A stretch of 64,000 nucleotides of DNA. Origin: Escherichia coli. Its GTDB lineage: Bacteria > Pseudomonadota > Gammaproteobacteria > Enterobacterales > Enterobacteriaceae. The notes under the pieces were generated by a model, which saw nothing but the letters and a program-made list of their open reading frames with translations, was not told where the DNA came from and made no database searches. Within the stretch, counting starts at the first letter, position 1; each line of letters starts with the position of its first letter. This document shows, in pieces, positions 5,689 through 12,462 of this stretch. The translations under genes and the position numbers were made by a program. The stretch lies in NCBI RefSeq assembly GCF_003991155.1, contig NZ_CP031293.1; one strand, 5' to 3'.

Positions 5689-6954
5689 TTAAGCTTCAGC
5701 CGCCAGCATCTCTTTCTTACGTTGGCTAATACGCTTAACCAGCATTACGGAAACCACCGCACCACAGAATGCGAAGCAGGCCATAATGCCAAACACGATT
5801 TTGTAGCCAATAATCCCCGGATTTAAATCCAGAATGTAGCCATACAGACTGAAGCAGAACATCGCCGGGGCGTAACCAATAAAGCTACCCAACGCCATCG
5901 CCGCGCCTGTTTTATTTTCAGCAATTTTTGCTTCGCCGATAGGTGCAAAAAATACGGCTCGCTGTGTAAAGACTATCGCGCCAAAGCCCAGCGTACATGC
6001 CATCCCTAAATAGACCGGCATACTTTCGTGCGGCAGCATAATCAACAGTACGAGCGCAGCGGTACTGATGATAAAGGTGTAGCATAGATATTTACTCGGC
6101 GATTTCAGGATCTTATCTGAAATCATGCCACCAATCGGTCCACCAATCATTTTCAGACAGTATTGGTTAATGATGCCGTAAGCCCCCACCAGCGCAACGG
6201 GCAATAGATAGATGTTTTTCAGGAATGGAATGAAGAATGTCAGGCCACAGTAAACCGCGTAAACGAAGAAGACGTTAAAAGCGATAAGCCAGATGGTTTT
6301 GTCTCTCAGCACCGAGGTCATACTGGTGTTTTGCGATGCTCCGTCTTCTTTTTTCACCTCAACGGACGGTGCCTCTTCTTTGTCATTCAGGACAAAGAAA
6401 ATAATAATGCCTACGGCAATCACAATAAGGGAATAGAACCAGATGCCTGCTTTAAAACCCAATAAGCCACTGCCAAACCAGGTAAATACTGCCAACGCAG
6501 AAAATGCCACCACGGTATCGACAATGCCACGCCCTGTTTCGAAGAAGCCAAACAACCGACCTTGTTGTTCGCTATTGCCCAATCGACTTACCGACTTGAG
6601 CAAGACCGGCCAGTTCATCATGTCGCAAGTAACGCCAAATAGCGCCCAGACAAAGAGGATGCCCCAATACCCCGGCATTGTCGTCAAATAAACACCCAGT
6701 AATCCTGTCGCAATGAGTGAGAATGACATGGTGTATCTGCGCGGTAGTTTATCGGCAAAATAAATAGACAGAAAAAAACCCACTGTCGTGACAAATGAGT
6801 TTACCGACATAGCATTACCAATTTGACCATTGGTCAAATGGAAATATTCCTGCATCGGGATATAAAACGCATCTTTCAGCGACGGTAATTTATAAATTGT
6901 ACCGCCACACAATGTTAATAGACTAAATAACGCCCATTTCTTTTTCGTGAGCAT
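5689..6954 (-). CDS. yihN: MFS transporter
   Basis: 421-aa ORF, hydrophobic multi-TM protein; position between ompL and yihM as in K-12. Confidence 0.85.
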   Translation of the reverse strand: MLTKKKWALFSLLTLCGGTIYKLPSLKDAFYIPMQEYFHLTNGQIGNAMSVNSFVTTVGFFLSIYFADKLPRRYTMSFSLIATGLLGVYLTTMPGYWGILFVWALFGVTCDMMNWPVLLKSVSRLGNSEQQGRLFGFFETGRGIVDTVVAFSALAVFTWFGSGLLGFKAGIWFYSLIVIAVGIIIFFVLNDKEEAPSVEVKKEDGASQNTSMTSVLRDKTIWLIAFNVFFVYAVYCGLTFFIPFLKNIYLLPVALVGAYGIINQYCLKMIGGPIGGMISDKILKSPSKYLCYTFIISTAALVLLIMLPHESMPVYLGMACTLGFGAIVFTQRAVFFAPIGEAKIAENKTGAAMALGSFIGYAPAMFCFSLYGYILDLNPGIIGYKIVFGIMACFAFCGAVVSVMLVKRISQRKKEMLAAEA

Positions 6955-7055: not shown

Positions 7056-8036
7056 TTAGTGGTTCAGAAGATGGTTTGCCTCTTGTTTGATTTGTTGTAG
7101 TACGTTACGCACATGATTTATCTGATTAATTGCATCTTCTTTTTCTTTACGTAACCGCGCATCCAGTAAATGATTTTCTGGCAATGGTGTTTCACTCATC
7201 TGGCGATAAGGGATCCACGGATTATCATCTTCGTCTTCAAAGCGGAACGCCGGCGCATAGTAATCAACCTCTTCTTCCAGGCCATATGCCGTCACCTGCG
7301 GCTCATCATCACCCAGGCATATAAGGTGCGTTAATAACGCTTTGAACGGCATATCACCCTGACCTGAAATACAGGCTTTATGACCCAGGCCACCCGGTTC
7401 TTTAACGATCAAGGCATCTTTGATATGGACCTGGGTAATATGCGGTGCCATCGTTTTTAAAGCGTCGATGGGATGCTCATTTGCATTGATCATGTTCGCA
7501 AAATCAAACAGTAAGGAAAGAGATTCCATCTCACTTTCTTTGACCAGCGACACCAGCTCATGACTTTTTAAATCTTCATGCTGCTCGATCGTAAAAGTCA
7601 GGCCGCTGTCCTGATACGTTTCCCGTACATAGGCAATGTCGTTAGCGATAATCGATAATACATCGCGCAAATTACCTTCATAACGCGGATAAAAACGTAC
7701 GGAGGATGCCCCAGTTTTCAACGCGATGGCGACGGCTTCGTCAATAGATTTTTTATCTGAGGCGCTGGTTTCAATATGAATATCAAGGTTCAGACGGCGG
7801 GCTTTATCCCCAAAGGCAGAGAGTTCTTTATCGTCCATATTACCAAGAGAAAAACGCTCTCCATCCAGAACATGGATTTTGACGCCACGTAGATTATTTT
7901 CACTTGCGATATCAAGTAAATCAGCAGGCAACACTCTTTCCAGTCGCATATTTAAATGAAAGGCATAAGCATGTAAATAAAGAGGAAGAGTGTCGACACG
8001 TTGTAGAATCTTTCTTGCGTTATTTATTGTCACCAT
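7056..8036 (-). CDS. yihM: Sugar-phosphate isomerase/epimerase-like (TIM-barrel) protein
   Basis: 326-aa ORF; conserved synteny with yihL and yihN. Confidence 0.8.
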   Translation of the reverse strand: MVTINNARKILQRVDTLPLYLHAYAFHLNMRLERVLPADLLDIASENNLRGVKIHVLDGERFSLGNMDDKELSAFGDKARRLNLDIHIETSASDKKSIDEAVAIALKTGASSVRFYPRYEGNLRDVLSIIANDIAYVRETYQDSGLTFTIEQHEDLKSHELVSLVKESEMESLSLLFDFANMINANEHPIDALKTMAPHITQVHIKDALIVKEPGGLGHKACISGQGDMPFKALLTHLICLGDDEPQVTAYGLEEEVDYYAPAFRFEDEDDNPWIPYRQMSETPLPENHLLDARLRKEKEDAINQINHVRNVLQQIKQEANHLLNH

Positions 8037-8043
8037 AAAACAC

Positions 8044-8754
8044 CTACAGATTAATGATGAGGTCTACGGCCTCAAATCGCCAATATTCAATATCTATCTG
8101 GACAATATTGCCCTGCTGGTCGGCGCGATGCTTTTCAATTAAGATCGCTGGCATACCCGCAGAACCGCCAAGATACTTGCTGATATCGCCCGGCATTCTG
8201 ACGGGTTTGAAAATCAATTTTTTTACTACCGTCTCTTTTTGGTAGCACTTTTCCCAGACTGCAGAAAATGAGTGGTTTTCAAGTTGTTCAATAAAACCCG
8301 GGGCAACTTCAGGATTAATATATGTTTCGTGATAGAAAACTTTATGTCCTTCCAGCGCCCCCCAGCCGGTGATGCGATAGAGTTCAGTTGATGGTGTCAC
8401 TGCAATCAGTGGCGCGAGCGTCTCGGGAATATCGCTGGTACGGTTTTTCTCGGTAAACCCCCAGGAAGGCTCTCGTCCTTGCTCAATTGCGGCCCGCTGA
8501 AAGCTCGCTGACAGCTCCGGACTGTAATTAAATCGCGGCTGGGTCACGAACCACCCCTTACGATCCTTACGGAAGATTTTGGATTCTGCCTCGAGGTTCA
8601 ACAACGCCTGGCGCAGCGTCATACGTTTAATGCCCAGCAGTTCTCCCAGCTCTCTTTCTGAAGGGAGTTTTCCACCCGGCGTGGTGATGCCATCTTTCAA
8701 CCACCGATCCAGTTTCTCTTTTGCATTTTCTACGGTGGATTGATTCTCCGCCAT
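8044..8754 (-). CDS. yihL: GntR-family transcriptional regulator
   Basis: 236-aa ORF with N-terminal wHTH motif (ERELGELLGIKRMTLRQAL) and C-terminal effector domain. Confidence 0.85.
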   Translation of the reverse strand: MAENQSTVENAKEKLDRWLKDGITTPGGKLPSERELGELLGIKRMTLRQALLNLEAESKIFRKDRKGWFVTQPRFNYSPELSASFQRAAIEQGREPSWGFTEKNRTSDIPETLAPLIAVTPSTELYRITGWGALEGHKVFYHETYINPEVAPGFIEQLENHSFSAVWEKCYQKETVVKKLIFKPVRMPGDISKYLGGSAGMPAILIEKHRADQQGNIVQIDIEYWRFEAVDLIINL

Positions 8755-8932
8755 TGTTTAATCCTTTTGGTTTAAACCAGATGAAGCATCTTACGCTTAC
8801 GCCAAAAAAGAAAGCAATTAACGGTGTATGACTTTGCAGATAATTGTGACAAAGCTCTCTATTGACGTAATCACAGACTTATAAGGGAGATACTCGCATT
8901 GGTGTGCGCTCACGACAGGTAAAAAAAAACCT

Positions 8933-8944
8933 GCCAGCGATGGC
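8933..8944. repeat. Target-site duplication (left copy), gccagcgatggc
   Basis: Exact 12-bp direct repeat flanking the IS at 8933-8944 and 10371-10382. Confidence 0.8.
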
Positions 8945-10370
8945 TAATGCCAGTCAGTTAAGCAACTGACTGGCTCTTTTTCGGGGCTGTGGGGTATTTC
9001 CAGGGCCTCTCCTTTACCACTCTCGGGAAGGCCCTTTCCCTTCTTGTCGGTAATTTCACAAGTTGTCCCATACTTGCAAGATCGCGCATCAGCTCCGGTA
9101 TACGTCCCGGTGAAGCGCCCTGCAATGTCATCAGCATTCTCATCACCATTCCGCATGATTCTGAGAAACTCAGTTGATTCGGCCAGTAACCTTTCAGATG
9201 TTCCGCCATTTTAATCATCTGATATCTCACCAGATTATAAGCCAGTAAGACACCCCACAGCTCTTGCTCCACAAGCTCCGGTTTTTTACTTCTCAGCGTC
9301 AGCCTGCTCAGTTGCATCGTCTGTTTTATCTCCCTGTATCCCAGTTCGATTTCCCAGCGATGACTGTACAGATCCGCCATTTCTCCTCCGGGGAAGCGCA
9401 TGGCGTCCGTCATCGACGTCAGCAGATGGCAGACTTTTCCTTTGCGCGTCACGGTCAGCAGGCGGGCTGTCACTTCATTTCCCAGTCCCGGCCACTTTTT
9501 TCGTGCCTGCGGGCTGGTTTTCAGCTTCACCAGATGATCGCCTTTACCCAGTTTTCTGATCTCTTCATATTGCGCTCCCTTTCTGAGAGGTATCATCCAG
9601 TGGCGGTGTTCTCCCGCCAGGCTCCAGGCATTTAACAGTCCCAGTGAGTAATAACCTTTATCCATTAACGTCAGAGTGTTATCGCCGGTTTGTTCTATAA
9701 GTTGCTCAGCAAGCTCATTTTCGCTGTTCTTCATCGTGCCGAAGGCTGCAGCCGTCAGCAGATGGCTGGTCAGTTCCATCTGGCAGACCATTTTGACCTG
9801 CGGGTAGAGCGCCGGGTTCCCGGCATGTGTCTGGCGGGGGAAGGCTGCATCGTTCTCTGGTGTATCCGGTGTGCGCCAGAACACACCATCGATGGCCAGC
9901 AAGGTCAGGCCGCACCAGTGCGGATGCGGCGTGGCGTTATGCCAGAGCTGCGCTGTTTTCGTGAACACGCGGCGGACAGCCTCACTTCCCAGGCGCTGGC
10001 GGGCCTGAATAACGGCACTGGGGGCAACGAAGGGGCGATTGCCCGGCAGCATGATGTCCAGGCGATTCACAATCTGGTGAAGAGGTTCTTTACGCTCAAG
10101 CGCCATGCCAACAATACACCAGACCATCATTTCGAGGGGAAGACGGCGCTTGCGTAGCGTTACAGTACCTGATTCGGCAAGGCAACGAGAGATGAGTTCG
10201 GGGTCGAGGTAATCCCCCAGAGAAGTCAGTGGGTTACGCAGAGAATCGTAACGGGATACCAGATCAAGAGCCTGTCCAATGTGCATAAAAAAATCCGGAA
10301 ACAAGTGAGCGTTTCCGGATTCTTACACAGCCACTGGATCGGTCAACTGATCCTTAACTGATCGGCATTA
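8945..10370 (-). mobile_element. IS4-type insertion sequence, 1426 bp, apparently intact
   Basis: Single long transposase ORF; imperfect terminal inverted repeats TAATGCCAGTCAGTTAAG (left) and CTTAACTGATCGGCATTA (right, i.e. TAATGCCGATCAGTTAAG in reverse complement); flanked by 12-bp direct repeat; length matches IS4 as recalled. Confidence 0.85.
8958..10286 (-). CDS. insG: IS4-family (DDE) transposase, 442 aa
   Basis: ORF 8958..10304 (track start is TTG); first ATG gives [16 protein letters not shown]...; sequence recognised as the E. coli IS4 transposase. Confidence 0.85.
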
Positions 10371-10382
10371 GCCAGCGATGGC
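10371..10382. repeat. Target-site duplication (right copy), gccagcgatggc
   Basis: Identical to 8933-8944. Confidence 0.8.
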
Positions 10383-10408
10383 AGGTTTTTTATAACTAAA
10401 AAACGAAA

Positions 10409-12232
10409 TTAATCGTCTTTCGGTGCGCGGTTGGCGCGACGACGATCGTTTTCCGTCAGGTGACGTTTACGAATACGGATAGAGGTCGGAGTCACTTCTA
10501 CCAGTTCGTCATCATCGATGAACTCCAGAGCTTGTTCCAGAGTCATGCGGATAGGCGGAACCAGAACAACGGCTTCGTCAGTACCGGAAGCACGCATGTT
10601 GGTCAGTTTCTTACCGGTCAGGCAGTTTACAGTCAGGTCGTTAGAGCGGCTGTGAATGCCGATAATCTGACCTTCGTAAACTTCTGCACCGTGACCGAGG
10701 AACAGCTTACCGCGGTCCTGCAGACCGAACAGCGCGAACGCTACCGCTTTACCCTGACCGTTAGAGATCAGTACGCCGTTCTGACGCTGACCCACTTCAC
10801 CCGGACGTACGTCGTCGTAGTGGCTGAAGGTGGAGTACAGCAGACCAGTACCGGAAGTCATGGTCATGAACTCAGAACGGAAGCCAATCAGACCACGGCT
10901 TGGGATCACGTAGTCGAGACGTACGCGGCCTTTACCGTCTGGATTCATGTTTTTCAGGTCGCCTTTACGTTCGCCCAGCGCCTGCATCACAGAACCCTGA
11001 TGCTGTTCTTCAACGTCCAGCGTCACGTTTTCATACGGCTCTTGTTTACGACCGTCGATTTCACGGAAGATTACTTTCGGACGGGATACCGCCAGTTCGA
11101 AACCTTCACGACGCATGTTTTCAATAAGAACAGACAGGTGCAGTTCGCCACGACCAGAAACGCGGAACGCATCGGCGTCTTCGGTTTCTTCTACGCGCAG
11201 CGCAACGTTGTGTACCAGTTCTTTGTTCAGACGATCCAGGATCTGACGAGACGTTACGAACTTACCTTCTTTACCGCAGAACGGCGAGGTGTTAACGCAG
11301 AAGAACATAGAAACGGTCGGCTCATCAACGGAGAGTGCCGGCAGCGCTTCAACGTTTTGCGTGTCGCAAACGGTGTCAGAAATGTTCAGTTCGCCCAGGC
11401 CCGTGATCGCCACGATATCGCCAGCTTCCGCCAGATCGGTTTCAATACGTTCCAGACCGAGGTGGCCCAGCACTTTACCGACTTTCGCGTTACGGGTTTT
11501 GCCTTCGCTATCGATGATAGTGACCTGCTGGTTCGGCTTCACTTTACCGCGCTTGATGCGGCCAATGCCGATAACGCCAACATAGCTGTTGTAATCGAGC
11601 TGAGAAATCTGCATCTGGAACGGACCGTCAAGGTCAACGTCCGGCGCAGGAACGTGGTCAACAATCGCCTGATACAGCGGGGTCATGTCTTCCGCCATAT
11701 CTTCGTGGTCCAGACCCGCGATACCGTTCAGCGCAGAAGCGTAAACGATCGGGAAGTCCAGCTGCTCGTCGGTCGCGTCGAGGTTAACGAACAGATCGAA
11801 TACCTGATCCACAACCCAATCAGGACGCGCGCCAGGGCGGTCAACTTTGTTGATAACAACAATCGGCTTCAGGCCGTAAGCAAACGCTTTTTTGGTTACG
11901 AAGCGCGTTTGCGGCATCGGGCCGTCAAATGCGTCAACCACCAGCAGCACTGAGTCTACCATGGACATTACACGTTCAACTTCACCACCGAAGTCGGCGT
12001 GCCCCGGGGTATCAACGATGTTGATACGGTAATCATTCCATTTGATAGCGGTGTTTTTCGCGAGGATGGTAATCCCACGCTCTTTCTCCAAATCGTTGGA
12101 GTCCATCACGCGCTCTTGGGTTTCGGCACGAGAGTCGAACGTACCGGATTGTTGGAGCAGCTTGTCTACCAGGGTGGTTTTACCATGGTCTACGTGCGCG
12201 ATGATGGCGATATTACGCAATTTTTCGATCAC
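10409..12232 (-). CDS. typA: Ribosome-associated translational GTPase BipA/TypA
   Basis: 607-aa ORF, N-terminal G-domain [13 protein letters not shown]-like domain architecture. Confidence 0.95.
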
Positions 12233-12383
12233 AACTTTGCCTCAGGCATTAGAAATAGCGCGTTATTGTACACGGATTAATCGCACTACAAAACAGGATC
12301 ACAAACATCCTCCGCAAACAAGTATTGCAGAGTCCCTTTGTGATCGCTTTCACGGAGCATAAAAAGGGTTATCCAAAGGTCAT

Positions 12384-12462
12384 TGCACCAACATGGTGCT
12401 TAATGTTTCCATTGAAGCACTATATTGGTGCAACATTCACATCATGGTGCAGCCCTTTTGCA
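12384..12462 (+). promoter_or_regulatory. NtrC (NRI) enhancer sites upstream of glnA
   Basis: TGCACCAacatGGTGCt (12384-12400), GCACtatatTGGTGCA (12417-12433) and a third GGTGCA..TTGCAC element, matching the TGCACC-N5-GGTGCA consensus. Confidence 0.75.

Follow-up and report, generated by a model that had tools for sequence, protein, structure and literature searches.

A likely target-site-driven and probably near-neutral IS4 insertion in the predicted typA terminator upstream of yihLMN in Escherichia coli

The window, a stretch of 64,000 nucleotides of an Escherichia coli genome, carries on its minus strand, in this order, typA, a copy of IS4, yihL, yihM and yihN (Table 1). A 100% identical stretch in strain 2016C-3878 has the same genes in its RefSeq annotation, and the yihL ORF is identical to the RefSeq yihL CDS of that strain. 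The best NCBIfam match of yihL is PhnR (TIGR03337), the 2-aminoethylphosphonate regulator, but the score of 183 bits lies under the curated cutoff of 297 and yihL is therefore not a PhnR equivalog; it is a GntR/HutC-type regulator to which no ligand is assigned. An earlier, sequence-only reading of this DNA had described yihL as an uncharacterised GntR-family regulator, consistent with a 2022 survey which places YihL among the E. coli regulators of unknown function and gives no precise yihL promoter (PMC9308461). Our literature search for yihL, yihM and yihN returned no functional characterisation, with yihL appearing mostly as a linked Keio marker or in listings of unknown regulators, and a profile scan of YihM gave no NCBIfam family match. 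The Rfam scan of the typA–yihL spacer together with IS4 returned no RNA family. On the other side of typA, in the 5' region that separates it from glnA, there is an Rfam match to the ES222 sRNA (12314–12421, minus strand; 135 bits against a gathering score of 62).

Table 1. Features of the typA–IS4–yihLMN locus (window coordinates).
Feature	Position	Strand	Description
yihN	5689–6954	minus	downstream of yihL, full length
yihM	7056–8036	minus	downstream of yihL, full length
yihL	8044–8754	minus	intact ORF, ATG start, 236 aa; GntR-family (HutC/PhnR-like) regulator; RefSeq yihL
Native yihL upstream spacer (promoter region)	8755–8932	minus	unaltered; 100% identical to IS-free genomes
Outer arm of split typA terminator, yihL side	8921–8932		A9-CCT
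Target-site duplication copy 1, GCCAGCGATGGC	8933–8944		inner stem and loop of typA terminator
IS4, complete	8945–10370	minus	1426 bp; IRR 8945–8962, IRL 10353–10370
IRR-side hairpin, terminator-like	8949–8974	plus	11-bp perfect stem, −18.7 kcal/mol, then TCTTTTT; overlaps transposase stop codon
IS4 transposase gene	8958–10304	minus	RefSeq TTG start at 10304, 448 aa; ATG at 10286, 442 aa
IRL-side hairpin, terminator-like	10287–10324	minus	14–15 bp stem, −19.8 kcal/mol, z −5.8, then U7 directly before transposase ATG
Promoter-like site	10319–10346	minus	TTGACC-16-AAGAAT with TG extension; probably the transposase promoter (putative assignment)
Target-site duplication copy 2, GCCAGCGATGGC	10371–10382
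Other outer arm of split typA terminator	10383–10408	minus	AGG-T6 (plus strand) and 14 nt to typA stop
typA (bipA)	10409–12232	minus	intact, 607 aa, ribosome-dependent GTPase; NF007583 1442 bits, cutoff 1260

The inserted element is bounded by 18-bp terminal inverted repeats that agree at 16 of 18 positions (TAATGCCAGTCAGTTAAG / TAATGCCGATCAGTTAAG) and lies between the two copies of a perfect 12-bp direct repeat. The match of its transposase ORF to NF033592 ('IS4 family transposase') reaches 304 bits, the cutoff being 115, and the RefSeq product name is 'IS4-like element IS4 family transposase'. The gene is co-directional with typA and yihL, so the end of IS4 facing yihL is the right (3') end, as had been read previously. 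Compared with its counterparts at this site in other strains, the IS4 of the window differs by 4–11 nt. An assembly artefact can be rejected because the insertion is present in 70 complete genomes; moreover, a 2226-bp structure containing IS4 is 100% identical in many complete genomes. The native typA–yihL spacer measures 216 bp, of which 26 bp (10383–10408) are now on the typA side and the remainder on the yihL side, where the previously given interval of about 190 bp between the yihL start (8754) and the IS4 end (8945) proved to be exactly 190 bp (8755–8944). The sequence-only reading had also held that IS4 abuts the yihL upstream region and displaces any more distal regulatory site, or read-through from typA, by 1.4 kb. 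IS4 does mark the distal limit of that region and has increased the distance to typA by 1.4 kb, but the upstream sequence itself is unchanged and no more distal native regulatory DNA has been moved, 190 of the 216 bp having stayed with yihL.

The empty site was rebuilt by removing IS4 and one copy of the repeat, giving AAAAAAAAACCTGCCAGCGATGGCAGGTTTTTT, with the layout A9-CCTGCCAGCGATGGCAGG-T6. In the transcribed strand, the rebuilt sequence forms a 13-bp hairpin followed by U9, starting 14 nt past the typA stop codon, with a predicted fold of −17.3 to −18.7 kcal/mol and z of about −4 to −6 (−5.9 for the −17.3 kcal/mol fold). On the basis of these folding predictions, the hairpin and U9 are assigned as the putative intrinsic (rho-independent) terminator of typA. 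IS4 is located 26 bp beyond the typA stop codon, at the exact centre of this hairpin, and the 12-bp duplication corresponds exactly to its inner stem and loop, implying that the cut was symmetrical about the hairpin dyad. Over its 600 bp, the rebuilt empty site matches several IS-free genomes at 100% identity, and comparison with such genomes shows that nothing has been lost or altered in the native sequence between the terminator and yihL. Of 5426 complete genomes, 4351 have the empty site without a break or almost so; strains with a short insertion close by, such as IS200C in strain 405, are counted among them.

The terminator region is variable in other respects. Two alleles of the loop (8937–8940 and 10375–10378 in the window) are exact reverse complements of each other, GCGA being found in the window and, we infer, in K-12, and TCGC in CD306, O157:H7, BL21 and an O121 strain; the difference amounts to two linked substitutions, of the kind expected from template switching in a hairpin. 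GCAA represents a third allele. An 86-nt loop-allele query matched O157:H7, BL21, O103:H2 and APEC O1 at one mismatch, with nearby SNPs blurring the identity bands, and TCGC also occurs in IS-free genomes (CD306, locus L006); the TCGC allele is thus widespread. In strain 405, IS200C lies directly beside the terminator A-run (GACAGGTA / IS200C / AAAAAAAAACCTGCC; L007 1775–2480, corresponding to window ~8920/8921), representing a second, unrelated IS family that uses the typA terminator region.

The distribution of the insertion was analysed in 5426 complete E. coli genomes, which together contain roughly 5400 copies of IS4. IS4 occupies the typA site in the window orientation in 54 genomes and in the flipped orientation, searched for with a synthetic query in which IS4 was reversed, in 16. 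These 70 are all the genomes whose empty-site match splits into two places, and therefore every large interruption at this point is IS4. Ten of the loci were compared base by base. In all of them, a 1426-bp IS4 is inserted at identical phosphodiester positions with base-identical junctions, and the duplicated 12-mer tracks the local terminator allele in 10 of 10: GCCAGCGATGGC in the window, L002, L004, L005 and L009, GCCATCGCTGGC in L003, L010 and L011, and GCCAGCAATGGC in L012 and L013. Each of the three loop alleles is found with IS4 in both orientations, which implies at least six independent insertions, on the assumption that recombination did not carry the insertion between backgrounds. 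The flanking haplotypes of the ten loci differ by ~0.4–1.6%, with SNPs 5–72 bp from the junctions, and the IS4 copies by 0–14 nt. The window belongs to the largest group of carriers, 41 genomes with at least 99.9% identity over 8.2 kb, recovered from humans, cattle, poultry, pets and water in many countries. A single ancestral insertion can be rejected given the three duplicated alleles, the two orientations and the existence of IS4-free sister genomes. A further mechanism considered was inversion through the outer stem arms, which would reverse the loop within the duplication; it is not needed for L003, as the TCGC allele exists in IS-free L006, and is excluded for L012 and L013, whose duplications are identical. 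Collectively, the typA terminator is a recurrent, orientation-indifferent hot spot of IS4. Our literature searches, which were directed at other questions, returned no prior description of it as such.

The preference of IS4 for such sites extends beyond E. coli. When the exact 30-nt right end of IS4 was scanned for in one representative genome per species, 67 loci were found in about 30 species of Enterobacterales, yielding 60 unique outward flanks. TTTT is present at nt 13–24 from the IS4 end in 46 of the 60 flanks, compared with 20 of 300 control windows further out, and the T frequency at nt 18–19 reaches 85–87%. The flanks are C-rich at nt 1–4 and G-rich at nt 9–12, and their first 10–14 nt are self-complementary over at least three outer pairs in 45 of 60 cases, compared with 65 of 300 controls. 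This profile amounts to half a hairpin followed by a U tract, the signature of an element inserted at an intrinsic-terminator dyad, and the window flank, GCCATCGCTGGC-AGG-T9, fits it. The 60-flank preference agrees with the target consensus AAA-N20-TTT and with the insertion of IS4 in the pheST attenuator terminator, both of which are said to have been described by Mayaux et al. in 1984. The behaviour is thus of the known IS4 kind; what is documented here is its recurrence in both orientations at one site, the three duplicated alleles and the 60-site profile. Strong specificity in the target arms is reported for some IS4-subgroup elements (PMC2266710).

Several individual loci in this collection deserve separate mention. 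Three Pectobacterium species (L050, L053, L074) share the same flank after the IS4 right end, TTCAGAAAATGATTTTCTTGCTAGAAAA, which is not terminator-like; this exception to the terminator rule may go back to one old insertion that the species share, or to a fragment within another repeat. Kosakonia oryziphila REICA_142 (L034–L049) contains no fewer than 16 IS4 right ends, the majority beside flanks with a hairpin and a T-run, and represents an IS4 expansion outside E. coli that is suited to the study of target sites. Citrobacter sp. 18056 (L069) and Chryseobacterium sp. 18061 (L071), which come from one study and are labelled as different phyla, have an identical flank at the IS4 end, and in a 1403-bp contig of an Oscillospiraceae MAG (L065) the IS4 right end lies 1 bp from one contig end, and at this length the contig probably holds little beyond IS4. 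Cross-contamination or mis-binning is likely for these three IS4 ends.

How the insertion might affect transcription was assessed from predicted folds and promoter-like sequences. On the typA side, the remnant of the split terminator has no U tract and its fold (−7.1 kcal/mol, z −0.7) is no better than that of shuffled sequences, and typA transcripts should therefore enter IS4. There, 47–84 bp inside the left end, they would encounter the IRL-side hairpin, which is terminator-like for transcription coming from typA, whereas the IRR-side hairpin, classed as terminator-like by the consensus scan, faces transcripts that arrive from the direction of yihL. The inward-facing hairpins at the two ends thus probably replace the split terminator in either orientation of the element, and they would also protect the transposase gene. 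The −10 hexamer of the only promoter-like site, upstream of the transposase gene, lies inside the 5' arm of the IRL-side hairpin, so that transcripts from that promoter would not themselves form the hairpin. On the yihL side, the remnant is reduced to a 4-bp stem (−5.0 kcal/mol, no better than shuffles) located 3 nt before U9, and a low level of transposase transcription could therefore extend into yihL. Such read-out from the transposase gene appears to be the sole plausible new input to yihL, and this in the window orientation only. At the threshold of a consensus scan, a crude method that is blind to weak promoters and to those of sigma factors other than sigma-70, the minus strand from 9000 to 8755 showed no outward IS4 promoter toward yihL, and the spacer showed no consensus sigma-70 site for yihL. 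Inspection by eye of 8755–8900 gave weak candidates only, e.g. the extended −10 TGTCACAAT and TTGCTT-18-TAAGAT, which are not relied on here. A genomic-SELEX peak of RpoD has been assigned to the typA–yihL spacer for the yihLM operon, with no consensus promoter given (PMC3946193).

The genes downstream of the insertion are often missing or interrupted. In about 1000 of the 5426 genomes yihLMN is absent beside typA, homology ending at the terminator and other gene sets following it, and in 141 complete genomes, counted as those sharing the junction haplotype at a coverage of at least 80%, yihM is disrupted by ISEc31. The yihLMN module is thus accessory and often lost. As examples of replacement, the place of yihLMN is taken in CD306 (L006 6900–7050; window ~8921–8944) by genes for a DeoR regulator, a sugar kinase and an aldolase together with yihU, and in UPEC-774U (L008 4900–5010; also window ~8921–8944), which lacks the terminator hairpin, by an STM4011–4015 radical-SAM cluster; the 3' end of typA borders a hypervariable region. 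ISEc31 in yihM carries a group II intron (ltrA) and occupies 2139–5666 of L012 and L013, equivalent to a point within 7056–8036 of the window.

We consider it likely that the structure is a target-site-driven, probably near-neutral IS4 insertion showing no sign of rewired regulation. According to this model, the IS4 transposase cut the typA terminator symmetrically about its centre, with a stagger of 12 bp, splitting the hairpin and duplicating its inner stem and loop. IS4 prefers a GC-rich palindrome with an A-run on one side and a T-run on the other, which makes the typA terminator a recurrent hot spot, hit independently and in either orientation. Transcripts of typA that enter IS4 would probably be stopped at the hairpin and U7 inside the left end, and in flipped copies the right-end hairpin would stop them, while the yihL promoter region would stay intact, with weak transposase read-out across the crippled remnant as the one plausible new input. 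The presence of both orientations in independent lineages fits target choice by the transposase rather than selection for an orientation-dependent effect on yihL. The suggestion of the sequence-only reading that the insertion changes yihLMN expression finds no support in the intact spacer, the split terminator, the inward hairpins, the outcome of the outward-promoter scan or the occurrence of both orientations, and a large regulatory consequence for yihLMN is unlikely.

Alternatively, the insertion could be adaptive, IS4 in the window orientation raising yihLMN expression through transposase or typA transcripts that cross the broken terminator, and the clone having been selected for this. The transposase gene is indeed co-directional with yihL, the remnant terminator is weak (−5 kcal/mol), and the 41 near-identical carriers were isolated from a wide range of hosts and countries; so widespread a clone is compatible with a benefit. 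However, hitch-hiking explains the clone size equally well, flipped insertions are about as frequent per haplotype (at least five in each orientation), a strong predicted hairpin lies at each IS4 end, and no outward promoter was found in the consensus scan. Moreover, two IS4 carriers have a disrupted yihM, and the module is lacking next to typA in the roughly 1000 genomes described above, so we regard adaptive activation as improbable. The opposite effect, a loss of input, would follow if yihL were partly fed by read-through from the highly expressed typA gene and the IS4 terminators and added distance lowered yihLMN expression. The geometric argument of the sequence-only reading for such displaced read-through holds, the RpoD SELEX study gives no consensus promoter for yihLM (PMC3946193), and the 2022 survey gives no precise yihL promoter (PMC9308461). 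By contrast, the native terminator is predicted to be strong (−17.3 kcal/mol, U9) and would already have insulated yihL, so that read-through was probably low before the insertion, and an RNA polymerase binding peak falls within the spacer (PMC3946193); a loss of typA-derived input is accordingly very unlikely.

A further possibility concerns the origin of the two orientations. Within the 141-genome lineage that shares yihM::ISEc31, the typA terminator is occupied by IS4 in two members, S1-ISR-02-A and SCAID WND2-2021 (L012 and L013), which agree fully in the flanks and in the element itself but have it in opposite orientations, and the IS4-free members, among the matches listed, are 100% identical to the 2600-bp empty-site query. 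Although this pair and the 11-bp perfect inverted repeat spanning each junction might suggest that a resident IS4 was flipped when its inverted ends, lengthened by the palindromic duplication (TGGC-TAATGCC / GGCATTA-GCCA), recombined with each other, a repeat of 11 bp offers homologous recombination very little length, two fresh insertions are simpler given the identical flanks of the listed IS4-free members, and the three loop alleles would still need several separate insertions, making in-situ inversion highly improbable.

Repeated, target-driven insertion of IS4 has several implications. For yihLMN the consequence would be small, as the upstream DNA of the regulator is untouched and many E. 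coli lineages do without the module, and, there being no sign of IS-driven rewiring, the locus is not to be prioritised as a regulatory variant. IS4 between typA and yihL is a homoplasic marker (at least six independent hits, in both orientations) and must not serve as a clonal marker. Furthermore, the flank analysis provides a quantitative picture of the preference of IS4 for intrinsic-terminator dyads in about 30 species, and the terminator-like hairpins predicted inside both ends suggest how such insertions may stay nearly neutral. More broadly, and tentatively, since we give the idea somewhat less than even credence, IS4 could be a dedicated terminator-seeking element across Enterobacterales, one that reads the structure or symmetry of a hairpin, cuts at the dyad, replaces the lost terminator and shields its transposase from host read-through via inward terminators at both ends; the typA terminator would then be one recurrent landing pad of a self-insulating 'safe-haven' strategy.

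The element corresponds to the known E. coli IS4 (ISfinder IS4 family, IS4 subgroup), the sequence of which was reportedly determined by Klaer et al. in 1981, in its length of 1426 bp, its inverted repeats matching at 16 of 18 positions and its single DDE transposase gene. IS4 generates target-site duplications of 11–13 bp, a range that includes the 12 bp found in the window. The insertion also resembles known ones in its palindromic target with A and T runs at the sides, although the runs are 18 nt apart at the typA site as opposed to 20 in the reported consensus. In IS10 and IS50, shielding of the transposase from outside transcription by a hairpin is a classic logic, which the layout of the putative promoter and hairpin in IS4 appears to share. 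With cases in which IS1, IS2, IS5 or IS10 activates genes through outward or hybrid promoters, the locus has in common an IS that precedes, in the same direction, an operon that is silent or poorly expressed. In contrast to those cases, no outward or hybrid promoter was detected here, independent insertions show no orientation bias, and IS4 lies 190 bp from the start codon, outside the promoter region. Further parallels are IS1397 and ISKpn1, which target REP/BIME sequences, ISPpu9 and ISPa11 of the IS110 family, and ISRm22 of the IS4 family, all of which, like IS4 here, are site-selective and insert at the centre of an intergenic hairpin palindrome. Targeting of extragenic palindromes has been described as a 'safe haven' that spares coding sequence (PMC1525189). 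The target at typA differs in being a predicted functional rho-independent terminator and not a REP element, and IS4 appears to make up for its loss through the terminator-like hairpins that face inward at its own ends.
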